64,000 bases of DNA from a virus. The notes beneath the pieces are model-generated. The model saw only the letters and a program-made list of their open reading frames with translations, ran no database searches and was not told the DNA's origin. A program made the translations under genes and the position numbers. Shown piece after piece: positions 1-43,739 of the stretch (position 1 is its first letter; each line of letters begins with the position of its first letter). The stretch lies in the IMG/VR virus record IMGVR_UViG_3300020193_000005, positions 45,137 to 109,136 of that record, one strand, 5' to 3'.

Positions 1-3000
1 AGAGACGACGAAAAGATCATCATGGAGAGCTTGGAGATCTCCAAGGACGAAGTCTTCGCTTACGTCACGCGACGTGGCGAGGACGAAATAATACTGGACA
101 TACGCAACGTCGTGGAGAGAACGGCGAAGAAACAACAGTTGCCACGGAAACCAAAGACGAGAATACCCTCCAAAAATAGGAACCTGACTCCCCCCGGCGA
201 CAGCGGAGCGATGAGTTCGCTAAGCAAGGAACAGATCGACGAAATGACGCAAAGATACAAAGACGGAGATTCCGTTCTGGAGTTGGCTAACGATTACTCA
301 GTAACCCAGGGCACCGTCTACTATCACCTGAGAAGAAAAGGCGTCGCCAGAAGGCCGGTCGGAAGGCGGAAAAAGCCCGGGGGATTTTCTGCCATAAAAC
401 GAAGATTGAAGGATTCCCTGGGACAAATCGGACTATTCGCCGCCTTCTCCAACGATCCGCAAAAAACTCTGAGATCTTCCAACCAAATGAAAACTTACTT
501 GCTTTCCGAACCCGTCCGAACACCGGACGACCTACATCCGGACGAGTTCGCATTGCGTCCGAATTTCGTTCGAGCCGCGATAGCCGCCGGATTGGGACTA
601 TTCAAGGCATTGAACCATAAAACCTTCAAAGTTCAGGGTCCGATAGCTAGGGAATTCACGGAACTAATGGTCGGACCCAAGATGGTCAACGACGCCATCG
701 GAACGACGTACCCGACGCTCCAGGAATTGGGGGAAATATTCGCGGCCAACGCAATCGTCAGGGCGCGAATCAGGTCTCTTTTCGGAATCAATGATCCGAC
801 CGCGCTCGCGTGGGCGATCCAATCGGGAGCTCCACTCCGCGAAGGCGGAGAGAGGATATTCGACATACCCGAATCGCCTCCGTACACAAGAAACCTGGTG
901 GGGGGTGGCTATGTCTATTTCGAGGGAATCGACAATAGAAGACCGTTCGTTCTATCGGTCATGGCGAATATGCCCGAAGCGGTGAGGAGCAAGTTGTACT
1001 GGGATAGTGACAAGATTCCGTGGAGCAAGAGAGACGTGCCCATAACTGTGGAGAAGGGGGAACTACCAGGCGGTAGGAAATACGAACGATCGCCCGTGGA
1101 CGAAGTTTTACCGCTTTTTGTTCCCGGTCACGATACGAGTCGATTGGATTTAATCAAGACGAATCACTCTTCGCCGGACGGAGCGAGGCTGGCCCAATAC
1201 GTGGAAATGGCGAAGGAAGAAATACGACAGTGGGCGGCGGATCACGACGAATGGGCCAGGAGATGGGCACAAAGCGTATATCGAATCATGAGCGAAGCTG
1301 GTCTGAGCGACGACGAAATAGCGGAAGTGATAAACAGGGACTGGTTGCAAAACATAACTTTCGGAATCGGAGATGCGGGAGACATATTGCAAAACGCCAT
1401 GTTTATGGCACTCCTTATGACGAGATCCAAGTTCGCCCCGGTGGTGCATCTAGAAAACGGATTTGACGATCCGAATTTGGCTCTTCATGAGTTCTTTCAC
1501 GTCCACCTCGGTCAAGGCTTCACGAGACACGGCGAGTACGTCGCCTTCAGGGGACCCGCGGAAGTTTACGACTCCTGGTATCCCCACACGCTATTCGCCT
1601 TAACCTTCAACAGCGCTTTTTGGCAAAACGTAGTGAAAGAGTCGGGAGGAACGGAAGAGCTCAGGAAAGAAATGCGAAAAGCCGTCGAAAAAATGCTCGC
1701 CCCGGAGTACGACTCGGACGTTCGTCTTCTTTTTGAGCTTTTCCCGGAATATCAGCGCGCCTCGGCGGAAATCAGAAAGAAACTCAACGAAATGATCATG
1801 GCGGAAATAATTGAGGACTTCGAAGACTCCACGGGATTCAGGAGGGTAGCGGGAATGCCCAGAGCAACCGAAATAATAAATGCTCCTGGTTTCAGGATTC
1901 CCAAAAGACTATGGCCGTGGGGTTCCAGCTACGGAGGCAAGGAAAGAATCGCCGACGTCCAGGGTAAAACATACGCGAAGTTCGAGGAGAGAATTTTCGG
2001 GGTTCCGGATCCGACGTCCGGCGACGGCGGGAATACGGGGAAAATGTCGCTGGAAAGAACTCCGAAATTCGACGGCGGTCACAGTAGTAGGGGAAGGGGA
2101 ACTCCGTTGGGTGACGGAAAGGACGTCGCAATGAGGGAGGTCGCCGACAGCGCGATCGTCGAGCTGGTCGGCAACCGAGGAAGTAGCTCGCTCACGACCC
2201 TAAGATTTCTCGGACCCTATAGGGCTGGAAGCAGGGTCGTGATGCTTGCGAGGAACGGCGAGTTACGTGGCGTGCCGTTGAAGAACGAAACCAGATCGGC
2301 GATAGCCAACGCCCAGAGGAACGGAGCGAGATTCGTCGTGGGGGACATGCCCGACGTGGATTCTCAGTTCGTGGACTTTTTGGAGGAGATCGGAGCCGAC
2401 TACACGATTTATCACGCCGGAAACTCCCCGAGATTCCGTCCCGGATCGAAAATCCCCGGGACGAACGCGGGAACATTGTCCGAGACGAGAGCCGGCGAAT
2501 CGGATTCTCCGAGTAGGTTGGAGACGATCGGAAGAAACTTGGCCACGGCGGCCGCCGAAGTGGTCGCCGCCGGTTTCGAAGTCAAGGTGTACGGAGGGCG
2601 ATCCGACTCCCAGTCTGGCTCGAATCCGATCGGCGGGATGCTCTCCGCCCTGAACAAAATGAGGGAAAACCCCGATGCTCCTACGGGAAGAAAATTGGCG
2701 GGGTTGACGATGATGATGAGCGCTATGGAAAAATACCTGACGGATTCAACGAACCAACGCCTAGTCGTCGTCTCGAGGGGAGATCGGGTCGTCGGGGCGT
2801 CGTTGATCAAATTCCCGGAAAAGGACTCCGTGGCCGAACTCAGATACGCCGGTTCGTTGTCTCCCGTGAGGGGGGTCGGTAGCGCCATGGTCGCCGAAAT
2901 CATGAGGCTCGCGGCGGACTCGGGCAGATCCATAATCGGAACTTCGTCTCAAGATTCGGTATCCTTTTGGAGAGGGGTCGGCGGGAAAGACGCCGATTGG

Positions 3001-3135: not shown

Positions 3136-3380
3136 AATCAGACGACAAGAAAATTGGACAACTTCCGTCCCTGGAATGGTTGGACGAGGCGGCCGACGGA
3201 GCGGATGTTCCGATCGTGAAGGTAGTTCCGGATCCCAGGCACAGGGAGGCCGCCCTAAGGGAGGCTTATGCGTTGCTCGGCGAGATGAAACCCTACTTTG
3301 AGGCGGTTCGGGAGGATTTTTTGTCCGAGTCCAATGCCGTCGGCAAGATGATCAAAGATCGTAAATATTCGGTTAGCTAA
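3132..3380 (+). CDS. Small hypothetical protein coupled to the upstream giant gene
   Basis: 82-aa ORF with ATGA start/stop overlap. Confidence 0.7.
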   Translation: MKSDDKKIGQLPSLEWLDEAADGADVPIVKVVPDPRHREAALREAYALLGEMKPYFEAVREDFLSESNAVGKMIKDRKYSVS

Positions 3381-3450
3381 GTTGATTATGTCTATAATTG
3401 TTGAAGTAGATCGCCAGAACCTCCCCCGCCAAGCAGAGGAACGACGCTAA

Positions 3451-6400
3451 ATGTCGCCGATATTCGAGAACATACCACCCAACTCAAAGGTGATAGCCAA
3501 GCACGGGTCGAAGGTCCTTTTCGGTCTTAGGAACGGGTCAACCGCCTTATACGATTCGAAAAGCGGATCCTTCAGGCGAGGGGACGACGCGGATTTGATG
3601 GCCATGGACGACTTTTCGTCGTCGCACAACGGCGAATGGGCGGACGACAGATTGAGGAGATTCGCCGCTTCTCGAAAAACCCTGAACCTGGGCTCCGATA
3701 TTTCCTTCAAGGTGGTTCAAAAGCCTAGAAAAAGTTCCTCCCGAGACGACGTCGCACAACCACAAGACCTGGCCAACATGCTCCCCAGGGAGTTCGTCAA
3801 CTGGGCCAGATCGTACGTTCCCGGGCAACGTTTACCGATCTCTCCCCCGGGTTACAGCGGAACCGATTCGTGTCTGGGTCAGAACGCCGGCGGTCGATCC
3901 TCCGCAAAAATGCCGAACGCCGACGAGTTGACTTCGATGATTCTGAGAACTTACGGTTTTCCGCAAACGGCGCCGGTCGACGCCACGAAGGAAATGCGCT
4001 CCGCTTACGAAAAGGGTCTCCTGGGCAGAACGATTAGGGAAATGGCGACCCCGAACATTCTCTCGATGGTCGCCGCGGCCAGGGGATTATGGGTTGACAG
4101 GTTGAACAAGATTCGCTGTTTGGGCGGACCCGCGGCGAACAGATTCACGAATATCTTCGGGGTCGGTTGCGACATTCCGTCGTCCCCGGCGGAATTGGCG
4201 CGCGACGCGGCTTCCGCGGCGAGAGAAGCGGCCGGAGACGCCTCTCGCGCCGTCGGCGAGGCAATGGAGAGAGTCGGAGAAGCGCGAGCCGGAGTGGGAA
4301 TAGCCAAAGAAAGAGTCGGCGAGACGATAGAAGCGACCGACGAGATTCCGGGCGATCTCTCCGTGACCAGAATGATCGGAGAGCTCCGACAGTCCGAACA
4401 AACGTTATTCGATACCGATACGGGACAAATGACCAGGCGCGCAGGGGGAAACCAACCGCTCCTCATCAACTCGGCGAACGCGGTCGCCGATGAGACGAAC
4501 AAGAAAGCCACGCGTCGCGTGCTTATTCACGAGGGCGCCCGCAGATGGATAAATTCCTGGGTCGAAAGACAAAAGGGCGAAGATCCGTCCAACCCCCTCG
4601 GCGTTATCAGATCGGCCATACGCAGACGCAGGAGTCGTCAACAGGCGACGACCACGGGAGCGCTGACGCCACAGCAGCTCAACGAGCAGGAAGTGAAGTT
4701 GTACGCACAGGGAGTGATTGAACTCATCAGACTAACGGATCCGGAGCTGGCGGACGAATTGAGCGAACCAAGCCATCTTTTGAACGACATCAACGATCCG
4801 GTCGCAGTGCGTAACGCAGGTAACCAAAATAGCAAAAACGTAATAGAAATGATGCTGACCGACGCCCTCGGCCCAGACGCCGGAAGGGACAGAGCGAAGC
4901 TACAGCGCTACGCGGCGAATTTATTCGCCATCTATCAGCCGTACATCGAAGATAGGCAAAATCATCCCGAATTGAAACAAACTCCCGTCAACTTTGCGCC
5001 GCAGAAAAATTTGTGGGAAACATCGAACGTCGTAGCTTTCTTTACGGTTCCGGGTTTCGGCGGAGGCAGAAATCAGCCTCTTAGCAACTACGTCGCCCCA
5101 ACGCCGACGAATCCAGGATATGCGGGTTCTGGGATGCTTGACCTTTTGGACAGGGGAGAGTTTCCCTTATTCGGAATGGGTTATCCGGGCAACAACGTCG
5201 TCGAGGCGGTAACGAGGAGCGGCGTAACCCCGCTGGACGGATACAAGCACACCACGGATTCGTTCTACAACAAAGTGGTCAAAAATATTGGATCAGGAAA
5301 CGCTCCGTTTCACGGCGTGTACCTTTTTGACTCGAGACTCATAACCGAGCCCGAAAGTTTGATGCGACTATTCGATTCCCCGGACGGACATTTGCCCGTT
5401 TCGGGTTTGTCGCCGGCGGCGGTCCTCCAGCACACCTTGGAACACGAACCCAAACACTTGGTCGCGTTTTCGCAGAGGTTGAGATCGAATCTCGGATACA
5501 CGGAAGCCGAATGGGCGGAAAGACTCGGAAGACAGTTCAAACTCGGGGGATCGGGATTGGAGGACTCGAGGTTCGGCGATCCCATTCTGGGAGAGAATCC
5601 GGATCACGTTTACGGACCGATAGATCTTTTTAGGGACGCTAGGAGCGGGACTTTCATTCGTAGGCAGGTGGACGAACTGATGATAGCGCTACGACATCCG
5701 GACTACGAGGGGGTGGTTTTGCCCGACGGCCTGCGGGGGTGGAAAAGTACGGATCCGGTCCTCAACGGAGCTCAAAAAATTGCGCTTCTATGGAAATTTT
5801 ACGCCAACAACATATCCTGGGATCGCACTACGGCCCAAAACGTCCAGAACTTATACGCGTTGAAAGCCGGCAAGCAAGCGGCGGCGCAACTCGTTGCGGA
5901 AATAGACGAATCGCTCAAGAGACGCGGGTTCGACGACGGCGTTCGGCGAATACTCCAGCAAGCGATCAGAGAAGATTTGATGTATTACGAAGACGGTCCC
6001 CTTGACCGAAGACGGATACTCGGTAGTTCCAGCGAAGACGCGTTGCATCAATCAATAAACGAAGCCGCCATCGACGCCGAGATAGCCCAACGAATCAGCG
6101 CGGGAACGCCCAATCCCGACAGAGATCAGGTAATAAACGATTTGATAGCGCAAGGAAGGGTGATTCCGCTCGGCAGTCGACCGGATCCCGGTCGACCAGT
6201 AACGGGGCCACTGTCGCAACACAATCGACTTTCGGGACAGAACAGGTTGACGGAAAAGCAAATAGTGCTGGCGCAGAATTTCGTCGGCGACGCCTACGCC
6301 ATGTCCTCGGCGATCGAGTTGGACGCCGAATTCAACACGGCCATTGCGCAACCCGATGCCCCGGAAAGAGTAAAACAATTTATCGCCGCTTACAGAGCAG

Positions 6401-9400
6401 TCGACCCGAACTTTACCGATAACGATTTTTACGACATCATAGAATTGATGGCCGGAAGAGAAGCCAGATACAGGTTGCAACATCCGAATCGGCCGAGTCC
6501 ACCTCGGGCATCGGCCGCGCCGAATAGAAATTTGATCGGTGCGCCACCCGCTCAAGCGCGACAGGCATCCCCGCCCCAGGCACCCCCTGCGCTGGGCGGA
6601 GGATTGGGTCCGGGCGGAACTCCGCCGCCACCCGGTGGTGGTGGTGGTGGTGGTGGTGGTGGTGGTGGTGGTGTTACGCCGTCGCCTGGAGGAGGCACGC
6701 CGTCGCCTGGTACGCCGTCGCCTGGTACGCCGTCGCCCGGAGGAGGCACGCCGTCGCCTGGTACGCCGTCGCCTGGGGGCGGTACGCCGTCGCCTGGTAC
6801 GCCCGCCAAAAAACCTCGCAAAAAAAGAACGCCGAAACCCAAGCCGGGCGCGCAAACTCCCCCCGCTTCGCCGACACCTGGCGGGCAAACTCCCCCCGCT
6901 TCGCCGACACCTGGCGGGCAAACTCCCCCCGCTTCGCCGACACCTGGCGCTACGCCGGCGACCCCTAATCAGTCGCCGCTGCCTCAAGGCGGATCACCCG
7001 TTCCGAGACCCAGACCCACGACTCAACGCCCGCCGCAGGCGAAGAGAACCGGTCCGAAACCTTCCTCAAAGGCGGATACAACTACGGTGCAGAAAGCCGG
7101 AGCCTTGTCTGCCGATATAGTACAAACGATAGCGGTCGGCGACCCGAACGATTCGCAGTGGTTGCAGAAATCTCTCGACTCGTTGGACTCCGACGATCAA
7201 GCCGCCTCGGATCATAGGGCAAGGGCCGTTCAGAAAGTCGATCGAGCGTTGGACGATGTTGTCGCGTGGGCGAACGGTCGGCTGCTGCCGAAACCGGTCG
7301 GAATCCATCCCCATTACCCCATACAAATAGTTGCCGGTCCGGACGACAACCCGGCCGTGCGAGAGCTTAGACAGTCGACCGGTCCAAAAGACTTGTTGGA
7401 CAGAATGGATCGACTCGGATACATCGTTCTCGATACCGAAACGGCGGGTCCCGACCTCGAGATTCACGGCGGAGCAATATTCCATTTCTACGCCAAAAAA
7501 AGAAATCCGGACGGCACCGTCGAGGAGCTTGATCTCTACATCAAACCGACCGTCACTCCGGCGATGCCAGTCGATCGCTATCCGGACGCTTTCGAAACCC
7601 TTCCCGACGGAACGAGGATAGCGCGACTCTCCGAGGAGTTGACGAGCGGTCCCCAAAAAATGCTCGACAGAGCCGAATACGACAGAGCCGTAAGCCAGGG
7701 AATCGACAGAACCGAAGCGGCGGCGAGAATAGCCGCGTTTTTGAATCCCGATATGCCGGTCGTGACGATGAACGGAAACAACTTCGATCTTCCGTTGCTG
7801 GACGAAATGCTCGACGAAGGCAGGGCGGCCGGAACCGTCGACAACGACTTCGGGCTTATCGATCTAGCCAGCGTCGACTTGTTGGCGATAGGTCACAACC
7901 TTCTTCGGGGTCGCCACGAACGTCACGATAGAAATCGCAAAGTTGCCGACTTGGCGAGACGTCTATATAACGGGGATAAGATCCCGAGCGGACCAGAACT
8001 AATCGGTCCGTGGATGACTTCCAAAATAGGATCTCCAAAAGGAAGCGTGGAAGGTTACAATCCCGCGACTGCGGATATAAAAGAATTTTGGTCGGAAGAC
8101 GGAGTCAAACACTTCGTAGAAACCCTTCCGGACGGGACGAAAATCAAGGGCGAGGCCATGACGATGCTCAAGACGAACAACAAATTGGACGCTCTCGCCA
8201 ACTACGCGGGAGTCCGCGCCCGCGCGACGCACGACGCCAAGGTGGACGTGGGCAAAACCGAAGAAACGATGAGAGCACTTCTCGAGCAAGGCGAAATACA
8301 AGGAATGAGCAAATACGCCTTCGATCACGAGGCGGCCGCCAAGGCCCAGGAGGCGCTCGGAATGGGCCCACCGCAGGGAGGAACCCTAGACAGGAAACGT
8401 CCGGGAGACGTAAGAAAAGCCAAGGGGACGGCGCAGAGACTCGCCGGTGGTCCGGGAACGAGATCGTCCCGGACGGACACCGATCTCGACTTGGAACAAG
8501 ACGAAAGAGTCGACGCGTTCGCTCCGTGGCCGGATGCCGCCTCGCGGACGGGAATGTCGGCTAACCCCAATCTCCAGGTCATCGAACCGCAAGACGGAAT
8601 GACCTCCGCGGAGAAAAATGAAATGACTACGTTGCTGGAAAAGCTCGAGGGATTGGATCAAATCAAGCAAGTAAGAAAAGCGACGAACCTCACCCCGGAG
8701 GAGAGACAACGACTAAAAATTCTCCTGACCAAAGCCGCGGACGCCTACAAAAAAGCGAAAACTCGCATCAGTGATTCGCAAGGAGATTTGACCGATGACG
8801 AAGGAATCCGAGCTTGGTTGGCCCAACTTGCGAAAATGGAAAAATTCATGAAGGAAAATCCGGATTTGTACAGCGAGGAGGCGATACAGCTGATGGTCGA
8901 CGGCGTCATCAACGGGGCGGGAAACCTAACCCCGGAATCGCTCGTGGCGATGGAAAGACGCGTGAACGATTTGATTACGAAGCTCGGATATCAGGGAGAA
9001 TTTTTTCAAGATATGGTCGCGGCTCATTTGTCCGTCGCGCTCGACAGGGCCGTGCGGGAAATGCGTCGCCGAAACCCGTCGCTTAGCGCGAACGAAATCC
9101 GCGAACTTCTAGGCATGGATCCCGACGATACTCCGTTGGTTGTGGCCATACTCGGCGACTCTGGGGCGATGCGATCGGCGCGAAGAATCGCCGGAACACG
9201 CAGAATCGACGATATCGCTCCAGACTCGGGGGCGATGCGATCGACGCCGGTAGTCGCCAGAAACCCCGACTCCTCCAGAAAGACGGCGGAAAAGACGGCG
9301 TCGATCCTGGGGAGAGCCGAATCCGTCGGGGTGGATATCGACAGACAAGAAAGAGAAGTAGTCCCCCGAATGGCTCAGAATAGAAAAAATGAGATTTTGA

Positions 9401-11034: not shown

Positions 11035-11038
11035 CGAA

Positions 11039-13909: not shown

Positions 13910-14208
13910 CCGAAACGAACGAAATGCCCCCGAAAGAAGAGATTGATCCGCTCAAGCAGAGGGAGATGGACGTCGCCGACGACATGTTCGGTTTTGGCAG
14001 AAAGAGCGCTAAAAAGGTTTTCCTTTCACTATTGACGGACAAAATGATGGAAAATGGAGTAAAGCCGGAATTAGCGAAGGACGTGGTGCTCTCGTTGTTG
14101 CCGGATTTGACCGAAATCGAAAAAGCCATCAGCGAAAATATAAGCTTTGCCGATCTGGCGAAAAGATACGAAAATTTCATGGATGGGGAATTGAGGGAAA
14201 ATGAATGA
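13906..14208 (+). CDS. Small acidic hypothetical protein
   Basis: 100-aa ORF, ATGA overlap, SD AAGGAG. Confidence 0.75.
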   Translation: MTETNEMPPKEEIDPLKQREMDVADDMFGFGRKSAKKVFLSLLTDKMMENGVKPELAKDVVLSLLPDLTEIEKAISENISFADLAKRYENFMDGELRENE

Positions 14209-14770
14209 GTTCTTGAACTCAAAAGCCGATCCGCTCGGAGGTCTTTTGCCCCAGGAGGTCGTAACCGGCGACGTCATGCGCGGATACGGTCCCAGAAGGG
14301 GAAATCTGGAGAGATTGCTTCGCTACTGGAGACCGATCATGAAGAAGCCCGGCGGATTCAGGAGGTGCAGGGTCATTCTCGCCGATCATCCCGAGCTGTA
14401 TCCGCTCAACAACATATGCGCCTGGTTGCATCACGAAACGACCGGATTATGGCCGAACGAAGGCTGTCACCACCCGGGCATGAAAAACTGCAGAAGAAAA
14501 CTGCGCGGCGTCGTCAACGGATCGATCTGGAGCGACTCGGATTTCAACGACAGGCTCAAGAAAATTACGAGGAGAAGGGGAAAGAAGGATCTCAGATCCA
14601 GTGGCGGTATCGACGCGGCCCAGACCTACGATCCGTTCGTGCCGGTCATAACGGACGACGACTGGAATCACGCCTGGGTGGTTTTGGACGACTTCGTAAA
14701 GATGGAACCGACCTTCGTCGCGTACGTTTGCTCGGACGATAACTGGGAGATGTTCGATTCGGATGTCTGA
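14201..14770 (+). CDS. Phage head-associated hypothetical protein with a Cys/His motif
   Basis: GNLERLLRYW...GGFRRC...CAWLHHETTGLWP resembles a motif I recall from actinophage head-region proteins; overlaps both neighbours in an operon. Confidence 0.65.
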   Translation: MNEFLNSKADPLGGLLPQEVVTGDVMRGYGPRRGNLERLLRYWRPIMKKPGGFRRCRVILADHPELYPLNNICAWLHHETTGLWPNEGCHHPGMKNCRRKLRGVVNGSIWSDSDFNDRLKKITRRRGKKDLRSSGGIDAAQTYDPFVPVITDDDWNHAWVVLDDFVKMEPTFVAYVCSDDNWEMFDSDV

Positions 14771-33300: not shown

Positions 33301-36300
33301 GAAAAGAAACGTCGAATCAATACCAGGAAAGAATAAGAAGACCGATTCTGGCCCACGCCGCGACGCTGAAAGCCTACGAAGAAATCCTGAAGGTAAAGCT
33401 GAAAGAATTGAACGACTTGATGGCCGGCGATAAGACGTCAAAATCCGAGGCGGTAGACAAATACAGAAAAGCAGTCGTAGGCGTGTATGCCGACATCGTC
33501 AATATCACCAGAGCGATCAGGAAGATGCATAGAGACTCCGTTGCGTCGAAAAGGGCATTGGATGCAATCGACGAAGAGATTGAACAAATTCGGGACTACG
33601 TCCAAAGAGCCGCGAAGGCCGTAAACGTCTCGGTAAAAGCAATAAATCAAAGAATGCAAATGATTCGAGCGATAAAGAACGGAATAGCCGCCAGTGGCAC
33701 GGACAGCGGAGCGATGTCGATTCCGATGAAGTTCGGGAGCGAAATTCTCTACATTCCGGCGAATCCGAGAATCACGCGGGAAAAACCGCAGTCCCTTCTG
33801 TCGTCTTTCGAGAAGGCGTTGGTCAGGGCGGCCGCGACCATCGGCGACGGCACCAACGAAATCCCCGAACAGGCCTCGCTGGTTCTCCCGAATCTGCGAA
33901 TGATCCGCTCTGGTTTGTTCGAGGAGTTCGTCGGTTTGCCGAATAGAAATTCGGTTCGGTCGATAGGAAACTCCCTCAGGGTTGCGCTCAACAAATTCGC
34001 CTCGGCGGTTACCGCCGAGGAATTCCTGAGAGAGTCGATGGGCGACAGATTCGTAAATTTCCGCTCCTTGGGCTTCAATCTTCTCCCGGAAAAGACTAGA
34101 AGAATCGCCGAGGACGCCATCCTCGACGGAACCATGGTTTCTTCCGCCAATAACGGCGTCACCGAAAACGACGCCATAGGCGCGATGATCATGCACGCCG
34201 AAGCAACGGAGGCGGTCAGGAACGCCATAATCGGGAGCTCGATACGGGACGCGGCGGAATACCTAAACGTCTCCCAGGACACGGTGCGAGACGCGATAGA
34301 GACGGAAAGCAAGTTGGCCGATTTGACAAGAGACGTGACGAGGGCTCATTCCCTGGCGAGACGTCTATCCAAGTCGAACGATAGGAGATACACGTCGAAC
34401 TTCGTGAGACGAAAGTTTTACGACCTAATCCAGGACGGGTTCCCGGAGGAAAGACTTCTGTATCCCTCAACGTTCTCGAGAAATCAGGCGGTGGCCGCAG
34501 CACAAAATGCCTTGAGGGTCAACGAAATTTACGGTCTCACGGAACAGGAACTAATGGCCGCTTCCGGATCGGACGAAGAAATATCTAGGTTGATTTCCTA
34601 CCTAAGAACCAGGGAAGCCAAAGCGTCGGCGAGAAAGTTCAACGACTTGCCAGAAAACTGGACGAGAATGTCGTTCGCCGAAAAGAACTCTTGGTTGTCG
34701 TCCGAGGAGGGCCTGCGCGCTTTCGGAAGATTTGGAGTAATGGTTCAGGCACAGTTGATTCAACAAGAAATAAACGATTTCGGAATACCCGACGGTCCAG
34801 TTTTTGCGATGGGAACGAAGATATTCGAAAAAGAAACGATGATTCCGTCGATGATAAACGAAAGAGGAGTTAGCAGGCTGTTCGTCGCCGACCCGTTGAC
34901 ATCGTACGATCTGCTTCGTTCGGGGAATAATTCGTACTTGATGCTTGAGGATAGATTGCCGTCGTTGTACGAGATATCCGACGAGGGTATGGCGAGGTTC
35001 CTGAATTCCTCTCCGGAATTGATTTCCGAATTCAGAAACGGAAATCTCATGCTTTCGGAAAAAGCCGCCGAAAAAATTGCCAAAGCCGTCGGCTTGGATT
35101 ACGCGGAAATATGGGGTATGCGCAGACCGCAGATAGCTACCAACGAGGGGAATTTCTACTGGCTGGCGAGCAACTGGGCGCTCGTGGGTCCGACGATATC
35201 GGCGATCAACGACGGAACGCCGACCAATTCCATATCCGATTTGGTGAACGACGGGGGGAGAAAGATACCGCAGAAAGTAAGCGAGTTGATTTCCTCCGGG
35301 GTGGTCGACGCTTTCTACGACGCGGTCAATCCGAACGGAATAACCCAGGCCGACGCCGACGGGTACATCGCGTCGCTGGGCAAAAAGAAACGAAAGGAAG
35401 TAATATCGATTCTGGCTTCCGCTGGTTACGGGGAATCCGAAATCGTGGCGAGCACCGGTTTCAACCCGAACACGGTTAGAAACGTTCTCAGGGAGACGAG
35501 AATGTCGGGCATGGCTCCCGCGGCCGTCGGTTCACGAGAGTGGACGATGAGCAACGCTCGGGCCATCAGGGCGGACTCCAAGAACGGCGTATCCAAGCGG
35601 GAGTTGATGAGAAAGTACGGAATAGGCGCCAGGAGCCTGAACTCGATTCTTTCCGAGGGGTCTTCGGTCGCGTACAGGTCGGCTTACCGTTCGGATTCCG
35701 GAGCGATGGCGAGCAGAAGACTGAACGACGAGGCGAAGGTCGCAAGACGCGAGGCGACGGATCAAGACAAAATCGTCGTCGGCGAGGAGATGGGAATAAC
35801 CAAGGACGTTATGGGGAACGAAATACGGGACATACCCGGATTCCACCCGATAGTCGCGCGCGTGGCGAATCCTTTCGAGGCGGAAAACGGAGCCGGGCTC
35901 AACGCTGACGGAACCAATAAGGTCGAGTCGCCGGAAAATACCGTGATTGAAAACATCGTTATGATGTGGAAGTCAATTACCGATCTCTTCGTGAACTACG
36001 CCCTATCCGGGGGAAGAATAAGACTTCCCTCCGACAAATTCCGTTACGTCGCCGGATTCGGAGAAGACGTCCTGGTGGATCTGGTCTGGGCGGACAAAGT
36101 ATCCAACATGGGTAGGGAGACGAACTCCTACGGAACGACGTACGCTAAAACTCAGCTTGACGCGATGCGGGGGGAATTCAGTTTCGCCATCAAAACTTTG
36201 CTGAAAAAAGTGATGGAAGAAAAAGAACTTCGGGGGGGAATCGACGGTCTTGCCAACGCGATCGCCGGTCAGCTCGGTCTCGTCCCGAGTTTGTTCGGAT

Positions 36301-39300: not shown

Positions 39301-42300
39301 AGCTCAACCCTCGCGACGTTACGCCCGAAAGAGTGATGGAAGAACTGCGCAGAATATTCCCGTACATGGGCAACGGAGACGAGGACTATTTCCCAGTAGT
39401 CGGAACGCTCTTTGACGAAGCGATGGAGACACTGTCCAGGTTCGGCGACGAAAGTGACCCGCTAAAGATGAGTCCTTCGCAATTTTTCGGCGGAGAAAAA
39501 CTGGACGAGCTCGCAGAAATTAGTTCGCGTACCCGAGAAGAAATAGAATCCAGAATAAGGGCGATCATGCGTTTTCCTGAGATTTTCAACGACCAAACGT
39601 TGATTTCGGACAACGATAGTTTGCTCAAAGCAATCGGCTACGTGGAAAGCGAAACCGTCAGGAAAGCCCGCTTCAGCAATCTGATGTCCCAGCTGAGACA
39701 ATCCCTCGATACGCAAATGAGAAGGGTCGCCGAGGGTCAGAGGATGTTGAACGATTTGAGGAGAGCCGCGGCCGTACTGACGAAACCCGACGATCAATTT
39801 GCGAAAATGTCCTCGGTGGCGATGGCGATAAACGAATACATAGATTCCCGTCGGGTGGCCGGGGACATAAACGACGTCACCGCTTTTAGGTTGAAGTCCG
39901 AACTTCAACAAATCATAATCAGAAACGTCTTCGGTACGGAAATTGACGGCGTCGGAGGTAGCGCGCTCATGATGCAATTCGCAGACATGATTCCGTACAT
40001 ACCGGAAAGATTGGAGTCCTTCTCTAGAACGCGGGACGAAGCGAGAAGCGGTTACAAGACCATCTACGACTCAATCATATCCTCGGGAACCTCTCCTTTC
40101 GTCGGCGTCAAGGCGACCTTTCCCACCCTGGCCGACGTGGAAAATTTCATGTCCGAGTTCGAGAAAGAAACGGGTAGACCCTTCGATCCGGACAAAGACA
40201 TGAATGCGATCCCGGCGGGTGGCAACATTCCGTCGAACATTTTCGTCAGAATATTGGCGCAAAGAATCAACGACGACGCGACGGAAAGCTTGGTGGATCG
40301 CGGCCTGCCGCTACCACAATCCGAGAACGCGGAATTGCTGGCCATTCTCGACGCTCTTTCGCAGGCACAGACGATGATCTACGCAAAACTTAGGGGTTTT
40401 GAGCGGGCGGACGCCAACGCGGGGGTCTTCGGAAACGTCAAGACGATGAAGGACGTCGGCAGGGAGATATCGGAACTGACCGCCAGAAACGAAGCGGTAA
40501 AAGCTCGATACAAGCTGATAGGTCGCTATAAAGCCGAGGTCGTGGATCCGATGCTCGAGTCTTTCAACGACAACCAGGAAGAAAACCTGCAGAAGATGAA
40601 GACGTTCAGGGAATGGTTGGCGGACTCGGGTTACGAGGACATGTTGGGAGACGGTTCCGACTCGGATTCGGGAGCCATGTCGACTCATGCCATGGTCGTG
40701 TCAAGGTTCAACGATCCGGCGAGAGCGGCGATTCTTTACGGAGCGGACGAATCCATGGCAGACAAGACGGATTTCGTGACGACCGGTCACTTGCTCATCG
40801 GGGCGTGGAGAGCGGTGGAATCCGTCATGGAGGAAGAAGGATCCTTGAAGCTTTCTCAAATAGCCTCCGTTACGACCCTGAGAAATGTTCTCGCCAACAT
40901 GAACAAGGCCGCCGGAAAAGACAGGGGAAACAAGCCGAGAATCACCGACTTTACCGCGCACGCGAAAAAAGCCATGACGAACGCAATTCTCGTCGCTTCG
41001 CAAAGGGGATCCGATCTAATAGACGTAGCGGATCTCGTGTCAGCGATTCTTAGACCGTCCCTGAACGAGGGCAAAGACGACGGTTTGGGCGACGCGCTTT
41101 CCGAGGCGGGAATATCGGTTGCCGATACCCTTCTGGCTTTCCAGGGGTACTTGACGGCAGCGACCGCCCCCGCTCAAGCCGACTCCGGCTCGATGACCGT
41201 GGGAAGAGCCGTAGACGCCAGAAGAGAATCGGTCAGGGAAAGAACAAGGGCGCGTCTAGCGCATAAGGCGGCGTGGTTCAACCCGTACGGAGCTTATTTG
41301 CTCGGGAAGAGCGACGACGGCGAGATTCCGCCCGGATTCTCGCAGATAAATATTTCGCCCGAAAAAATCAACGACGAAGCCCTGGTTAGGGAAGTCTCCA
41401 GACTGGGCGACATCTACGCCATGTCGATAACGTCGGGCGCGCTTCCTGCGGAGGATTTCCGATCCGGCGAATCGCCGTTCGACGACGTACCGGAACGACC
41501 GTTCAATTCAATATCGACTTTCGGGGAGCTCGGGCAAAGACCGACGGATCTGGTCGGAGCCATCCGTGACGCGATAACGAGGGCCGACGCGTTGATCGTC
41601 GATCAGACGCAACGGGACAGGTTGAATCAATACCTCGCCGACATGAAGTTGATGTTCGACAATTACCTGCACGTCGACGAAGTAATGGGTGGCGATTCCG
41701 GGGCGATGAGAAGAAGAAATCCCCGTACCATCGCCGAAATAATAGAGCCGATCAGGGACATGTTCGCGAAGGAAGAAAAATACGGACAAAAGAAGTATTA
41801 CGAGCACATCTACGGTCCCGTTTACGATACTCAAAGCCAGTTGAACAAGTCCGCTAGATACGAGGCGTATAGGTCGCCGTTCGAGCTGTCCAATAATCTC
41901 AGGATAGAAAAAGACGACATTCAGTGGAGCACCAACGACTGGGTCTACAAGAAGGACGACAAATTCATAGAGGCCGCGGACGCCGTGATAATCAAAATGC
42001 GGGACGGAAACTTCGCCACCGCACAAGTGGCCATGATCACCAGGAAGAGCGGTCCGTTCAGGGGATCCATATCTACGGTCGGAGGTCTGAGGGACGGCGA
42101 CGAAGATTTGATGACCACCGCCATAAGAGAGGCGACGGAAGAAGTCGGACTGCCCGAGGAGATGATCCTGCAGGCGGTTCCGCTCGGAATGATAGAAGCC
42201 CCGGACTGGGATCCGCGATTCGCGAACGGAATAAGAGTGGCGGCGGGAATGTTCGTCGTCCCCTGGGATACGGATCTTTCCGCCGGATCCGACGCAAGCG

Positions 42301-43739
42301 GAGCCGAGTGGATTCCGCTATCCGAAATAGCATCGGGACAAAGATCGATCGGTTTCGGACACGCCGAGTGGTTGAGAAGGGCGGTTGCGTCGATGACCAT
42401 AGATCCCGATAGCGATCCGTTCGGGGAGCTGAGAACGTCGATAGCCAGAAGGCTCTCCTTGCTTTCCAAGGCGGCGAGATTACGCAACCAAAGAATGATC
42501 GAGAGAATAAACGACATCCGCAGAGCCACCGGTAAGCCCCTGCTTCTCCAGTCCGGAAAGATGCCACACCCCATGATGCCGTGGGGGAAGAAGGTCGCCA
42601 GGTCGGTTTGGTCTTTCGGTAAATCGGAGAGCTCCGGCGACTCGGGTGCGATGTCGGCGGAGATGGGACGCGATCTACGAAAAGCTCTCGGTCTGGGGGA
42701 CGAAAACGGCGCTCCTAAATCCGAATACATATCTTCCCAGGAATGGAACGGTGCGAATTCCGCATCCCTTCCGAGCACGTTAGGTTTTTACGGAACTCCG
42801 CAAATTTCGTTCGGAGAAAAATCCGAGGTAGAACAATCAATCGCCGGATTCATGGATCCGACGCAGTATTCCGTTCCGAGTAGAGCAACGGGCCTCTGGA
42901 TACCCTACATAGACAGGAGCGTCGCCAGGGCGGCGGCCAATAGAACAACGGATCCCAAGGCAGTGCCGACGGCGTACATTATCGGCGGACCCTCCGGCGC
43001 CGGAAAGTCCTATCTGAGGACTTCCGGTTACGACGGAATACCGGGTTACGATTTCGCCGTTACGGCGGATCCGGACGACGCAAAGATCGTTTCCCCCGAA
43101 TTCGCTTACTTTGCCGAAGCCATAGGCAAGAGAGAAAACGGAAAACCCATATACCGTGGACCCTCCATAGCGGCCGCGTTGCATGAGGAGACTAGATCCG
43201 TATCCAACGCTCTCTATATGTCAGGCATGAATTCCGGTCTGGACGTCGTGTACGACACCAGCGGTCAGTTCAGGGACGGCAATACCCTGGGACTGACGAA
43301 GGCGTTCGGTTATTCAATCAAGGGTTATTACGTATTCGGTCAGCCGGGAATACTGGAGAGCAGGGTCGCCGAAAGAGGGGATACCAGTGGAAGATTCGTG
43401 AGCAGAGGCATGTCTGAAACCATAGGAAACAACCTGGCTAGCATCATCCCGCAAATTGTTCAGTACTTCGACGAGTTGAAGATTCTCGACTCATCGACCA
43501 ACGTGGAGAGACCGAAGGTCGTGGCGATATACAAGAAGTCCCCGGACGCCATTCAGGGCAAACCCGATAACGGACAACTAATCGGTCAATGGGAAGTTTT
43601 GTCGCCGATATTCTTCAAGTACGTCAATGTCGTCGGTCCGGCTGGCGCGGGAAGCCAGGAGATGCAAAAAAACTTCAGACAATACAAGATCATCCCTGTG
43701 ACATTTGACTCCAGAACCATGTTGTGGCCCGATCAATAA
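24339..43739 (+). CDS. Giant 6466-aa multidomain virion cargo protein/polyprotein: DUF3721-like and shared tag, HTH arrays, Clp-N repeat, Nudix hydrolase, C-terminal zeta-toxin-like kinase
   Basis: Single 19.4-kb ORF; Nudix box GLRDGDEDLMTTAIREATEEVGL at 42084-42152; P-loop GGPSGAGKS at 42984 with DPDDAK; Clp-N-like RFNDPAR..GHLL and FTAHAKKA..DLVSAIL; ten DSGAM-type motifs. Confidence 0.85.
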   Translation: MTEDHEQGDCCPLSPDGHSPEEKSFSFGPRQVRPDEFDAFVDKESARSRARQLGCIGIRQYSSTAGGLIWMPCSNESDYRRVTGRSPLGRRERRRILRNEIESVMKKKDLGPSLGMSDARDMNPATAIDADLDRLVLEGIPTINLGRGVPDPTPFGTEIPKIPETRRVLDAPEKIEARTPDEPRKKKLKRIRKIIEPVVAPKASPLSSAAKKFGKINFQKITKKKKPKKKKLNYSTVIGNMEKLLTDFPVDYSFVPKPISDDARSKLGLTGAAGLPAERIRSGAAIAEISEQSINSMKNIFQMIGSQTGNQYASLIDSRIAKMNSAQRPVAPRPPTGSATLLGAILSVQRSNNEEFIGTYGVGDSDLFSENYVSSMEKLISQGFFPETASYLVSNFNDMDGGQRKAANMLGMSDRSLRRLRRAAEKSNKVFGVGTETIGLAKVDSDPFEVATAVLLARNYLLENARKNGVDYDMWRAVSELTGANKQVTRRMFSSIFSANRDYLGEVYGDSRNVSEYGNGLLRLASGAAANMSENDATDLNSMMNDSDSGAMAIYIPPSNRRPRDINPKASLIYPMHKRQSGSWSEIAKDVQKILRKIKKNFRHVGDAEPKRFSSLEKDIGQILLELLPYSFTDYAREIAILQAILRDRVEFNLLPIGEVGSNIGGKFVPDVQKLSVLGQNGLLDLFEPINAVNARTPERDLVPKPLSLVRAISLLTEALDIASRAASEILATTGRERFYGDIGLRTRQELERRDKSAVNFLVSDAYRTRDYAEDVDGFSPYEQLVIFGRGMKTTTDDVGQIRDYLSDRLRRLERITNFGGTMDASKINMFEATESGLGDEIIDAIRGINEAWFNTLLPSYVKPVPVADPSTREIRELSPGSTARRYRTAKQFSDALAETFDSLYMRNASPDLPSSLFDPEGETIVKDRFFDAYEELLPLILDPENPSRPAFTYSEIDAAIRESFAELLDRKPRGVAELMKNLLNDGLMEDVKRNLRNRFGGYDASLGGDPRVTEKFRFVDAQSIIPRLTRERSARRLRRATASVSDDGDSGRMGGFSVPRPIQSATGGTPGGIGFDKNYVRSGDLANEMRQIDENSKRFWDMVDDKVSLRVAARGLALLEDLKDPQKLRSLIDDISSLAPTINGQRLEPYSNNDAIAIVKGMKDLFDRNELSDIANNSVTYDPDRPWTANVMTFLMGRQTGKNPLPKQFFGAHPDKLRDLRFAPLYYDNNMRTLRPFMESLGIGSDGEMIKFAMTGRPITGSRKHTSPKNKDNQEANYVGDVMAMFVEGPESLSRYSGGDNENDPRRNSDVGIGQAFEYAYQVYLRDPRRKMNGSPLLTVVGDPAREFAVRNDFRKRIHDLWNEAERVYGREIQGRPAPIQDEALYYAATQAVKLAETNSSRLVTREDFSEVMDVILRNDMGRGFSTFGEIATAILGEKAEAFRELSGEDLRKAVINSMTPELKKKLTDKKKRMKTAEEIFFASAVAIADFPWDSDDDHSNKKKEDWIEVGKRIGELNQASVFYDEFYKYLSENGGDNAKYFDARFGKFITSNQLSVIVDDIAPGLTEGIFAGESGRMSKGEMMSEEEYKAIVAARNAIVERVRRSRFLSSLDFAQEKVDEINELAEKADKLIEWKRARLLSLVTPRDGALTDDDWFVYAAIGGFYRPFRSIFLQRFDEKSAPISVTTARDKLRTFIAEAGSDVVRELFGWVSTAIRGEEDEPTEDGETKFRTVYELTSDGGVSPILDRPDLFERSDDARNEISYIDPKAKEPIMVRAEDGSLIPKQKSPAELRKASTPIKVLTPYGKLNKAILDGALRAGLVAMPSADEAENELPLDIALSVFGGELPLIELPKSWHEPLSDEELELTFTRADLAEISKQVKLFNRRFALEMLTGEKVSPDVSQKVVRGKAEFIATPEQLSQNQALEAMNPLNQSSVKSFVNTLSPEQLKTIGALFGSDQSSAIKLTPEMLLAANGGLDEVNLSVAKLIVEAAKKVAFLRRTENGDDLINQRVATILGDSSLGDNEKKVITAVGSGDSDAAKKAFIDLPRESAASLSRSLLKPIYDLSAKDAQGNLVAGIADVTQTDAESGLQWTRNLLEHVLSMPEPLQFLEEFRKGLKTGAARRAVIEVGTSRTADPGAETTALRTVKLDGEWMKRFVIGKPVDGKGYIIMRVLDGQDRTRLDEMREKIQNFSGSSSEAAEIISLMTDEEVTNFLINKVYPALVAKGMRDKFSFGMAQVTAELDAKMRSIGRRLRKSSSVTEILDATEAAIAEAFDGRTRDMLTREELVQYGDLVAYFAAGGKQILPPEKYRSALAEMAAERRRVVQRIKDRADEETREEEELYEAMMDPPIEQSLLEALQRARDPQTIADLAEQEELYRIMGGGRIPGSGLRPYDGVDENLGESTFWKMFRPDPVTDDDSEQNRFGEGDPFGQSDTGRMTMPLPPPPPDPAVNIGDREYSRLTKENAERTFGAWTYQMIFRNYSTIFGGRGTGAPHISPQSYPTAPLTRNPYHYDRARRAIDAMWRLTTGDVPEAVRIRLENDEKVQLEQAKEWLDDLIWVTAEYMRMAGIDVPDDYDPKLAANKNNPIQRIFLDNMAEATLLALYFPFTFKIPVRSSGTEGAADWVPQDDQDFNVEGLNSADRPNLIYAAYHSIVAGDFSVSSGIDSGGRDISRWIFNPKPQNEGPVTPLGPIETEIYGSRDDGTPPTDVVSDATSGGEQDDGSPFLEDPLIKELTDFIATIILNPFGGSEYSFNEWLDQANRYSKILGSSHYEKRGSGKGLIDLVTEDRSVINVDKVLSEIIKTGGAGDEFSTPDSLISFGDLSIADPDYGPSFPGVSDEINAPSMFDNMSPQEISKQRKIGISSTSKASQAARAGWWASLQSGKHPMEIASSEKTSDGINWHPDIVEEGIRKHAKQNGIASSVVDAAFDAAEKAYEAKNLSTAKLKSIAAIREIVDANPNNLAKVFNDLEELLKQRESERKETSNQYQERIRRPILAHAATLKAYEEILKVKLKELNDLMAGDKTSKSEAVDKYRKAVVGVYADIVNITRAIRKMHRDSVASKRALDAIDEEIEQIRDYVQRAAKAVNVSVKAINQRMQMIRAIKNGIAASGTDSGAMSIPMKFGSEILYIPANPRITREKPQSLLSSFEKALVRAAATIGDGTNEIPEQASLVLPNLRMIRSGLFEEFVGLPNRNSVRSIGNSLRVALNKFASAVTAEEFLRESMGDRFVNFRSLGFNLLPEKTRRIAEDAILDGTMVSSANNGVTENDAIGAMIMHAEATEAVRNAIIGSSIRDAAEYLNVSQDTVRDAIETESKLADLTRDVTRAHSLARRLSKSNDRRYTSNFVRRKFYDLIQDGFPEERLLYPSTFSRNQAVAAAQNALRVNEIYGLTEQELMAASGSDEEISRLISYLRTREAKASARKFNDLPENWTRMSFAEKNSWLSSEEGLRAFGRFGVMVQAQLIQQEINDFGIPDGPVFAMGTKIFEKETMIPSMINERGVSRLFVADPLTSYDLLRSGNNSYLMLEDRLPSLYEISDEGMARFLNSSPELISEFRNGNLMLSEKAAEKIAKAVGLDYAEIWGMRRPQIATNEGNFYWLASNWALVGPTISAINDGTPTNSISDLVNDGGRKIPQKVSELISSGVVDAFYDAVNPNGITQADADGYIASLGKKKRKEVISILASAGYGESEIVASTGFNPNTVRNVLRETRMSGMAPAAVGSREWTMSNARAIRADSKNGVSKRELMRKYGIGARSLNSILSEGSSVAYRSAYRSDSGAMASRRLNDEAKVARREATDQDKIVVGEEMGITKDVMGNEIRDIPGFHPIVARVANPFEAENGAGLNADGTNKVESPENTVIENIVMMWKSITDLFVNYALSGGRIRLPSDKFRYVAGFGEDVLVDLVWADKVSNMGRETNSYGTTYAKTQLDAMRGEFSFAIKTLLKKVMEEKELRGGIDGLANAIAGQLGLVPSLFGYMFAMHENLDEVIQDSTPGRSRTPFKPFGTQYKRALKAVLAADDLSQTINGVRKSEDAISPLLRDPRQMMKYIPEDLKRRYTETITTTDSEPAQVEVSGFNGQEDVRVLAYVASTIADLASGDVDRYFDETSPGDTTMYFNSPEGKFIALMVALGNIRPTFRYLPYANTLGMYYSGNENDEVLDGSGFVREVISEIEQNYAAWAERFIDRLTPMVNDGDQNMRLYDVSNFRDPLTDGSNWGKRVFLDGTNFNNSIKDALFLQGQIDDSDQPTSMVLQLSMTGDGSVVPSLSVLDSIIAPMEEAYFFAPDIRDGIPVSNSGFSFVMPSPMRETIRRARGDITAEGILAAGEMGISIPSSEIVEEKLSNFITPENYGGDTEYYPGIENMIRWMVERGLASEIVRGLDSQSPGSKYSVDPAVLEEIDILTRSEPDLFPSGGRSAPIDYTLSPDLAALEKLVKAPNVSTSVPLFKRQDYFHLRDAIPYLVSLLEVMKQRNTATLPPSYDLMPILNAETGDVIGMSPGNIVDSGIDPTVSLNPNYWPRATRFSQMIIEAVQQSEKIAGFPAELKQIVNEMTPREFALLDWIVSMNQSLQPIFELWDTSTLVAFEQEGSHPSFNTRRTMAGTTEYPSSIFSTGERASGLPLVVPPKNVRGQQLTAFDGQDQVLDQVPFGSERIEFGGTQPNSVVDDQVYAYAMDQIFKKLASYGSKSSETLVNEVIFNSPVIQTLKNKTQIDDDDLRTLLDDGKESGEVVAMILSDLLAEGIMRAAVRESGANIRYAPFSSGDESIRVDGVRGENLRKFLDAVRPRRDFYGFWSMYGPDVVYSLPNNDEPYLPIWEDDRKLTEFFGVRPYAPEIFFPYGSTEKLENDASLKGSLVGTNELFDALQRSPSRWWWDRQAPLIGSTADDGNVTTPEAIVDDAERTASQYVLNMSPDELIEYLLSVQESASGRRTEESGVAVRPPNLPSILRRAFGDMNDLTFENIPYNKLDEWTGTIVSELNPRDVTPERVMEELRRIFPYMGNGDEDYFPVVGTLFDEAMETLSRFGDESDPLKMSPSQFFGGEKLDELAEISSRTREEIESRIRAIMRFPEIFNDQTLISDNDSLLKAIGYVESETVRKARFSNLMSQLRQSLDTQMRRVAEGQRMLNDLRRAAAVLTKPDDQFAKMSSVAMAINEYIDSRRVAGDINDVTAFRLKSELQQIIIRNVFGTEIDGVGGSALMMQFADMIPYIPERLESFSRTRDEARSGYKTIYDSIISSGTSPFVGVKATFPTLADVENFMSEFEKETGRPFDPDKDMNAIPAGGNIPSNIFVRILAQRINDDATESLVDRGLPLPQSENAELLAILDALSQAQTMIYAKLRGFERADANAGVFGNVKTMKDVGREISELTARNEAVKARYKLIGRYKAEVVDPMLESFNDNQEENLQKMKTFREWLADSGYEDMLGDGSDSDSGAMSTHAMVVSRFNDPARAAILYGADESMADKTDFVTTGHLLIGAWRAVESVMEEEGSLKLSQIASVTTLRNVLANMNKAAGKDRGNKPRITDFTAHAKKAMTNAILVASQRGSDLIDVADLVSAILRPSLNEGKDDGLGDALSEAGISVADTLLAFQGYLTAATAPAQADSGSMTVGRAVDARRESVRERTRARLAHKAAWFNPYGAYLLGKSDDGEIPPGFSQINISPEKINDEALVREVSRLGDIYAMSITSGALPAEDFRSGESPFDDVPERPFNSISTFGELGQRPTDLVGAIRDAITRADALIVDQTQRDRLNQYLADMKLMFDNYLHVDEVMGGDSGAMRRRNPRTIAEIIEPIRDMFAKEEKYGQKKYYEHIYGPVYDTQSQLNKSARYEAYRSPFELSNNLRIEKDDIQWSTNDWVYKKDDKFIEAADAVIIKMRDGNFATAQVAMITRKSGPFRGSISTVGGLRDGDEDLMTTAIREATEEVGLPEEMILQAVPLGMIEAPDWDPRFANGIRVAAGMFVVPWDTDLSAGSDASGAEWIPLSEIASGQRSIGFGHAEWLRRAVASMTIDPDSDPFGELRTSIARRLSLLSKAARLRNQRMIERINDIRRATGKPLLLQSGKMPHPMMPWGKKVARSVWSFGKSESSGDSGAMSAEMGRDLRKALGLGDENGAPKSEYISSQEWNGANSASLPSTLGFYGTPQISFGEKSEVEQSIAGFMDPTQYSVPSRATGLWIPYIDRSVARAAANRTTDPKAVPTAYIIGGPSGAGKSYLRTSGYDGIPGYDFAVTADPDDAKIVSPEFAYFAEAIGKRENGKPIYRGPSIAAALHEETRSVSNALYMSGMNSGLDVVYDTSGQFRDGNTLGLTKAFGYSIKGYYVFGQPGILESRVAERGDTSGRFVSRGMSETIGNNLASIIPQIVQYFDELKILDSSTNVERPKVVAIYKKSPDAIQGKPDNGQLIGQWEVLSPIFFKYVNVVGPAGAGSQEMQKNFRQYKIIPVTFDSRTMLWPDQ

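Follow-up and report, generated by a model that had tools for sequence, protein, structure and literature searches.

Gp21 of phage T4 recognizes L/I-x-E sites, and in this phage a capsid-targeting sequence is present on the internal proteins and on Alt. Head proteases of the phiKZ/SPN3US type cut many head proteins at one short Glu-containing consensus (A-x-E), remove N-terminal targeting propeptides and chop propeptides small, and cargo is ejected into the host (PMC10052503). For polyvalent proteins, zincin-like metallopeptidases are named as the usual hub and assemblin-like peptidases are located at C-termini; it was predicted that these proteins accompany the DNA and are freed by embedded peptidases (Iyer, Burroughs, Anand, de Souza and Aravind, 2017; PMC5512222). 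Here we describe a recurrent pentapeptide, DSGAM, in giant proteins encoded between the portal and capsid genes of an uncultured phage. The analyzed stretch of 64,000 nucleotides (positions 45,137 to 109,136 of IMG/VR record IMGVR_UViG_3300020193_000005), hereafter called the window, is the final 64 kb of a single virus contig of 109,136 bp. The motif is probably a protease cleavage code by which capsid-targeted polyproteins would be cut into about 45 proteins.

With T4 gp21, phiKZ gp175 and SPN3US gp245 this system has in common that one short consensus occurs in many head proteins, whereas the enzyme would be of the HK97 type (S78) and not of the T4 gp21 type, and the consensus contains small residues and Met instead of Glu. 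The substrates of the T4 and phiKZ enzymes are single proteins with one propeptide, but here they would be polyproteins that reach 6466 aa and contain as many as 12 internal sites; in addition, the candidate protease is fused to a polyprotein and a tape-measure-like protein also carries the motif. HK97 gp4 (MEROPS S78) is similar with respect to the Pfam S78 assignment, the gene position between portal and capsid and a capsid protein with a delta-like N-terminus. It is, however, small and separate and is known chiefly for cutting the capsid delta domain after Lys and not for such a substrate repertoire, whereas here the S78 domain is fused to 3,500 aa of cargo. As in polyvalent proteins, unrelated effector domains (helix-turn-helix (HTH), Nudix, zeta-like and ADP-ribosyltransferase (ART)-like) are joined in one polypeptide beside portal/MuF genes. 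The peptidase found here is, in contrast, an N-terminal S78 domain, and there is an explicit lineage-specific site code, whereas in the passages of PMC5512222 consulted by keyword no cleavage motif is defined, and the word 'linker' is absent from its text. A zincin domain was not found in the giant proteins by Pfam searches, which remote homologues could escape. Giant precursors, an embedded protease and a short consensus that varies between related viruses are also features of positive-strand RNA-virus polyproteins cut by picornavirus 3C or potyvirus NIa; these viruses belong to another realm, their proteases are unrelated and the whole genome is expressed in this manner, whereas here one virion module of a double-stranded DNA tailed phage is concerned. 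Compared with prohead-protease maturation and polyvalent proteins, the scale is unusual, the motif class is new and co-evolving dialects are visible. In the literature searched, the coverage of which was incomplete, no description of this motif or clade was found.

The DSGAM motif and its location at domain borders

Among the products of the contig are a tail sheath, a baseplate wedge protein, a large terminase (TerL) and a portal-MuF fusion, and it therefore represents a myovirus-type tailed phage. TerL and portal-MuF are followed by a 3750-aa protease-bearing protein (gpA), nine further proteins and the major capsid gene. The block between the portal-MuF and major capsid genes comprises 61 kb (56% of the contig) and encodes ten proteins with about 19,800 aa, having in order 3750, 674, 2180 (gpC), 2527 (gpD), 956 (gpE), 189, 697, 2040 (gpH), 287 and 6466 aa (gpJ). 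A reading of the window from its letters alone, termed below the sequence-only reading, had described five giant proteins with the motif; the window covers only part of the block, as gpA with 12 sites and its N-terminal protease and the first half of gpC are located upstream.

Ten exact copies of DSGAM and nine variants listed in that reading were all recovered at the positions given there, in frame in giant open reading frames (ORFs) on the + strand (Table 1). In the whole contig, 21 exact copies were observed compared to 0.02 expected from composition (at most 2 in 2000 shuffles), and a loose pattern gave 34 matches compared to 0.5 expected (at most 4 in shuffles), an extreme enrichment. The pattern [DEN][ST]G[ARKQS]M had no match in the remaining frames of the window. 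With variants included, about 36 sites were obtained in six proteins, which are thereby divided into 42 fragments (median length, 321 aa), the largest number of sites per polyprotein being 12 in gpA. All sites lie in the + strand giant ORFs of the portal-MuF-to-capsid block except for two NSGAM copies in a tape-measure-like protein encoded outside the window, which were not part of the sequence-only reading. Two pairs of sites are arranged in tandem with a distance of 22–26 aa (gpD 1907 and 1929; gpC 69 and 95).

The consensus of the sites is [D/G]-[G/S]-D-[S/T]-G-[A/R]-M followed by S, R, T or A. When Met is numbered P1, the logo over 36 sites contains Asp at P5 and Ser at P4 in 30 sites each and Gly at P3 and Met at P1 in every site, whereby the search pattern fixed Gly and Met and restricted the choices at P5, P4 and P2. 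Ser is encoded by AGC as well as TCN codons and the codons for Asp, Gly and Ala also vary, indicating that the constraint acts on the protein, as the sequence-only reading had argued. The same was observed in the relative designated G2, where the P4 Ser is encoded by AGY in 12 sites and by TCN in 8.

The sites are located in linkers at domain borders. None of the Pfam and PHROG matches spans a site, and several matches start within a few residues past one, namely DUF4314 after Met901, HTH after Met1207 (gpC) and Met2481 (gpD), zeta after Met6105 (gpJ) and two modules framed by sites, phrog_4776 (between Met961 and Met1207) and Nudix (between Met5790 and Met6105). The assignments made from the letters, Clp-N, Nudix, zeta and HTH, hold. 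In total, the giant proteins comprise modules of the HTH, sigma-like, exonuclease-like, ART-like, ClpC-N-like, Nudix and zeta types. Compared to random positions, the site flanks are more disorder-prone (z 3.7; this value was reached in 1 of 5000 samples) and less hydrophobic (0 of 5000). An AlphaFold2 (AF2) model of gpC 940-1275 based on a 61-sequence alignment had a mean predicted local distance difference test (pLDDT) score of 82.9, and confidence was low only in the two linkers ending with DSGAM: pLDDT was 53–54 before Met961, at least 84 in most of the following domain (with means per 10 residues falling to 74 and 80 at two places), 47–48 just before Met1207 and 88–94 in the next HTH. This HTH matches Hin and GcrA, and the match begins at the motif. 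In a model of gpJ 5430-6466, which is of low quality (six sequences only; mean pLDDT 52.6), all four sites are in segments with pLDDT below 50 between folds resembling the ClpC1 N-domain and zeta toxin. The overlay on predicted domain boundaries is thus in line with the linker position proposed before.

The segments between sites resemble complete proteins. For gpC 962-1207, which is enclosed by two DSGAM copies, 159 homologues were found among proteins of 135–431 aa, mostly free-standing and 220–250 aa long; one example, from a Mycobacterium phage, has 238 aa. These homologues extend past the second site by 0 residues in 44 of 60 cases and by at most 17 in the rest. Similarly, cellular Clp-N proteins align from their own residue 3 to residue 8 after the site in gpJ.

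Both modules deserve a separate remark. gpC 962-1207 (L004:5612-6349) belongs to phrog_4776, a large family of free-standing phage proteins of about 230 aa, with invariant Arg, Ser and Glu-x-Glu positions. Foldseek and VIA-align yielded weak ART-type matches only (E 0.04; Z 4.9–5.7), the weak structural matches being to ADP-ribosyltransferases and Tpt1/KptA, and the segment may, tentatively, be an ART-type effector. The 172-aa module of gpJ (window 40680-41195) is predicted to have a ClpC1 N-domain-like fold (Foldseek E 1e-5; target TM 0.74–0.78) and could target the host Clp machinery as a decoy or adaptor. This module and the actinophage-like capsid protein are together a weak hint at an actinobacterial host.

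Dialects of the motif in related phages

Relatives were available from IMG/VR for the portal (n = 153) and the capsid protein (n = 286), all of them uncultured. Their giant proteins carry other versions of the motif, which we call dialects: the block of G1 (a 117-kb contig) contains 27 copies of [E/D/S]AGM, that of G2 20 copies of SGSM (PSGSM), and that of G3, a complete genome of 137.8 kb with terminal repeats, 14 copies of SGRM (ISGRMG). Outside the block, the search pattern occurred in G1 to G3 only in the tape measure (AGRM in G3 and SGAM twice in G2). Further relatives have GPVG[S/A]M, LSGSM, VSG[K/R/S]M, ITG[A/S]M or PTASM. The feature common to the dialects of near relatives is a few small residues followed by Met.

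The last giant protein, gpJ, is collinear in six lineages, each of which has its own dialect ([E/D]AGM, PTASM, NAGM, P[I/V]G[K/S]M in the relatives) where gpJ has its sites 3786, 5443, 5615, 5786 and 6101; at the 3122 junction the motif of the relatives is located a few residues downstream. The Met column is aligned at four of the orthologous junctions, with an alignment offset of 1–3 residues at 5786 and 6101, and a conserved domain start following Met is clearest at 3786. The first giant protein shows the same lineage-dialect pattern. Phages with differing dialects may have portals that are 70–76% identical. Since the sites are uniform per genome yet differ between genomes at orthologous positions, one co-evolving recognition factor is predicted.

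More distant relatives, with capsid proteins of 66–70% identity, have giant proteins punctuated by (R)LSSG followed by A, R or K (loci L126, L141-L147, L150, L157-L166, L171, L180, L186 and L189) and not by a Met-ending motif. (R)LSSG defines a second dialect group within the same phage family. Among the loci compared, no junctions orthologous between the phage studied here and the LSSG-dialect relatives were found. In Gordonia phage DalanDe, which has a 1633-aa protease fusion, a recurrent motif was not found.

Several candidates were rejected as sites. QSGKM in gpJ (residue 6071; window 42549..42563, + strand), which is missing from the list of the sequence-only reading, is inside a conserved domain, where Met-Pro-His-Pro is kept in all lineages and the preceding residues do not correspond to the lineage motif. 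In some relatives the Met of SGPM, within DUF6321, is replaced by Leu; the portal sequence SGIM is invariant in the nearer relatives L006-L028 and missing in more distant ones. Neither of the two follows the lineage dialect. The likeness of DSGAMS to the eukaryotic DSGxxS degron is taken to be a coincidence, because the dialects of the relatives do not keep it.

Candidate protease, candidate targeting tag and alternative explanations

Residues 32-177 of gpA match Peptidase_S78 (PF04586) with 43.7 bits (cut-off 21) and phrog_80, head maturation protease, with an E value of 8e-26; DUF6321 follows. His72, Ser136 and His168 were invariant in a sequence comparison of 31 protease sequences. No other peptidase was recognized in the larger ORFs of the contig by Pfam and PHROG searches, and no PDB entry was matched when the protease region was used as a sequence query. 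The protease region (L003:2789-3793) has four private substitutions (I34V, G49N, K97R, G130D) at positions that are at least 90% conserved in 30 relatives, and G130D is located six residues before the invariant Ser136. These substitutions are candidates for involvement in the dialect change.

Five giant proteins that are otherwise unrelated each have a single copy of a tag of about 36 aa (core DADLDRLVLEGI ... GRGIPDPTPFG; Table 1). The tag is well conserved in relatives, with five copies in G1, three in G2 and two in G3. A site is located directly after the tag in gpC and gpE and also in proteins of G2 and G3. The first site of gpA is located downstream of its tag, and therefore the protease would keep the tag. 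The tag is a candidate capsid-targeting or protease-docking module.

The proposed mechanism is as follows. The ten block proteins are encoded at the position where a scaffold gene is normally found. The tag probably brings five of them into the procapsid, including the tagged S78 protease, which after assembly would cut the roughly 36 linker sites to yield about 45 proteins of domain size. DNA binders (HTH and sigma-like) as well as ART-like, exonuclease-like, ClpC-N-like, Nudix and zeta-kinase-like modules would be released, the N-terminal tags would be cut off and the products would presumably be ejected with the DNA. The sequence-only reading had proposed a shared cleavage or docking signal; the results fit a shared recognition signal at domain boundaries of head-module polyproteins, DSGAM being only one dialect of it, whereas cleavage, packaging and ejection, as well as the scissile bond and the identity of the enzyme, are what we infer. 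We favour Met as P1, with a small residue or Arg as P1', because Met is invariant among near relatives. A small P1' resembles the Ala-Ser sites of herpesvirus assemblin (S21). Possibly, Met is instead P1', and each product would then have an N-terminal Met.

In its complete form the proposal is that of a self-contained, co-evolving code. A cargo-fused HK97-type protease would read small residues plus Met, produce about 45 injected effectors by cutting the head-packaged polyproteins (56% of the genome) and trim the tape measure, and the code would drift among sister lineages (DSGAM, EAGM, PTASM, PSGSM, ISGRMG, LSSG) as in RNA-virus polyproteins. This complete form is put forward tentatively, its chance being a little short of even.

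A number of observations weigh against cleavage by a head protease. The tape-measure-like protein (1776 aa; contig 6289-11619, - strand, L001) has two tandem NSGAM copies at residues 94-110, just before a membrane segment. Tape measures of G2, G3 and G4 have S/T/A-G-x-M at the same place (LSGAM; AGRMG...NGRMG; LTGAM), which matches the lineage dialect only in G3; in G1 and G5 this place is occupied by MAAM only. A procapsid-confined protease should not be able to reach a tail protein, and therefore the enzyme either is not confined to the head or is a different one. Furthermore, a lineage-specific site was not found in the capsid protein, which has only an invariant GGRNGANM, showing no co-variation with the dialect. 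Between this DSGAM phage and relatives with the AGM dialect, the protease region has 89% identity, so that either few substitutions would account for a change of dialect or no more than the shared core is read by the protease. The codons just before the ATG of the motif are biased (GCG in 17 of 21 copies compared to a background of 41%; GGA or GGG in 15 of 21), and relatives show a bias, too (GCC-GGA in G1, TCA in G2, weaker in G3 with CGC in 6 of 14); a DNA-level effect or common descent may be behind it, possibly a recent spread of the linker or selection on the mRNA. As half of the model of the gpJ tail has a pLDDT below 50, the location of its four sites in such segments is weak evidence. 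Finally, there is no close cultured relative, the closest capsid proteins of GenBank phages being those of Gordonia and Brevibacterium phages with 47% identity.

The motif in the tape measure at a conserved N-terminal position in several lineages, the S78 region that is 89% identical across differing dialects and the capsid protein without a dialect site would fit a cleavage signal read by a host protease or by an unrecognized cytoplasmic phage protease. The giant ORFs would then be an expression strategy and not necessarily packaged cargo. A precedent is staphylococcal phage 80-alpha, which uses the host protease Prp. We nevertheless consider this explanation unlikely, as the S78 domain on the first polyprotein is the only recognizable protease, the arrangement of a tag followed by a site is sensible only if cutting follows incorporation, and dialects differ between phages with 70–76% portal identity, which is faster than expected for a change in host-protease specificity. 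A co-evolving partner would explain the dialects just as well if the motif were not cut at all and served for docking, e.g., by anchoring the giant proteins at many points to the inner capsid surface, the portal or a chaperone, and a location in linkers suits such short linear motifs. However, free-standing homologues have both their ends at the sites, which are located directly before natural N-termini, the tag-then-site layout mirrors removable targeting peptides, the tandem sites 22–26 aa apart would give the tiny peptides typical of propeptide shredding, and a protease is fused to the system, all of which makes uncut docking quite improbable.

That Met, encoded by ATG, is the one invariant residue among near relatives and that the preceding codons are biased, also in relatives, could point to a signal in the nucleic acid, either an internal translation start or a 15-nt recombination joint for module shuffling. 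In that case, however, Ser would not be expected in both the AGY and TCN families, nor LSSG without Met in the distant relatives. True gene starts have GGAG-type sites 5–8 nt upstream, whereas the G-rich codons of the motif are only 2–3 nt from the ATG, and the PTASM and PSGSM dialects encode nothing resembling a Shine-Dalgarno sequence; this spacing and the several dialects without purine-rich codons make internal translation starts unlikely. A stretch of fifteen degenerate bases is too short for homologous recombination, and a nucleic-acid signal of either kind is highly improbable. The codon bias may also reflect common descent, as would be the case if the motif were a functionless relic of repeated duplication of one linker. 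The joined segments are, however, unrelated in sequence, and orthologous positions are kept while the sequence shifts in concert in each lineage, unlike neutral relics; we regard this possibility as extremely improbable.

Layout of the head block and implications

The positions of the block genes, tags and sites in the window are listed in Table 1. The capsid protein that closes the block has a conserved N-terminal coiled delta-like domain of about 100 aa (window 44128-45501). Its GGRNGANM sequence is located about 55 residues before a conserved N-arm strand and may be a capsid maturation site. Short proline-rich tandem repeats were noticed in two of the giant proteins: TPSPG occurs seven times in gpD residues 1076-1112 (window 6676-6800), and PEKVP eight times in gpA residues 800-880 (upstream of the window), just past the first gpA site. 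Relatives have PE[KR]VP repeats resembling those of gpA. In addition, gpA 2373-2682 and gpD 1300-1627 (approximately window 7350-8330) are paralogous, with 23% identity over 350 aa, and both match phrog_192, which is annotated as DNA polymerase exonuclease subunit.

Table 1. Genes of the head block, tags and motif sites in the window. Residue numbers refer to the proteins; Met is the last residue of each motif.
Feature	Position	Strand	Remarks
gpC, C-terminal 1044 of 2180 aa	1..3135	+	gene start 3407 nt upstream of window; multiple HTH modules, ART-like module; 7 sites, 2 of them in window
DSGAM, gpC Met1207	199..213	+	directly before HTH domain; AF2 pLDDT <50 just ahead; HTH match begins at motif
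NTGKM variant, gpC Met1818	2032..2046	+	in frame
gpD, 2527 aa	3451..11034	+	exonuclease-like region, TPSPG repeats, terminal 46-aa HTH fragment; 4 sites
DTGQM variant, gpD Met327	4417..4431	+	in frame
DSGAM, gpD Met1907	9157..9171	+	in frame
DSGAM, gpD Met1929	9223..9237	+	22 aa past preceding site
DSGAM, gpD Met2481	10879..10893	+	before terminal HTH (residues 2490-2520)
gpE, 956 aa	11039..13909	+	N-terminal tag, then 2 sites
Tag in gpE	11129..11242	+	candidate capsid-targeting module
NVGAM variant, gpE Met71	11237..11251	+	directly after tag
VSGRM variant, gpE Met121	11387..11401	+	in frame
189-aa block protein	14201..14770	+	without sites
697-aa block protein	14763..16856	+	without sites
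gpH, 2040 aa	16849..22971	+	tag and 1 site
Tag in gpH, residues 219-254	17503..17610	+	one tag copy
DTGRM variant, gpH Met446	18172..18186	+	in frame
287-aa block protein	23398..24261	+	DUF3721 and DUF5872 below Pfam gathering score; phrog_17747/phrog_14910, E 1e-20 and 3e-19; without sites
gpJ, 6466 aa	24339..43739	+	tag, 10 sites; ClpC-N-like, Nudix and zeta-toxin-like modules near C-terminus
Tag in gpJ, residues 121-158	24699..24812	+	one tag copy
DSGAM, gpJ Met552	25980..25994	+	in frame
DSGRM variant, gpJ Met1054	27486..27500	+	in frame
ESGRM variant, gpJ Met1579	29061..29075	+	in frame
DTGRM variant, gpJ Met2444	31656..31670	+	aligned with ITASM of relative L114
DSGAM, gpJ Met3126	33702..33716	+	relatives' own motif within few residues of junction
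DSGAM, gpJ Met3790	35694..35708	+	orthologous AGM, PTASM, PSGAM in five lineages; conserved domain start past Met
DSGAM, gpJ Met5447	40665..40679	+	before ClpC-N-like module
DSGSM variant, gpJ Met5619	41181..41195	+	after ClpC-N-like module; orthologous in five lineages
DSGAM, gpJ Met5790	41694..41708	+	before Nudix-containing segment
DSGAM, gpJ Met6105	42639..42653	+	before zeta-toxin-like module
Major capsid protein	44068..45501	+	probable start ATG 44128; coiled delta-like N-terminus of about 100 aa; closes block; without lineage motif
Tags upstream of window	gpA 580-615; gpC 30-65

The lineage dialects represent a natural experiment in the co-evolution of a protease and its substrates, and a question posed by the copy of the code in the tape measure is where and when a head protease acts. 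For biotechnology, the motif could provide a protease/site pair that is compact and orthogonal, and it could be a route to cargo proteins from sequence only. If the proposal is true, the boundaries of mature proteins could be read from the sequence throughout a large family of uncultured phages. Cleavage at the sites would mean that the giant ORFs of a widespread uncultured phage clade can be annotated as dozens of separate host-takeover proteins, which are probably injected, and that HK97-type head proteases are able to run a polyprotein system at the scale of RNA viruses.

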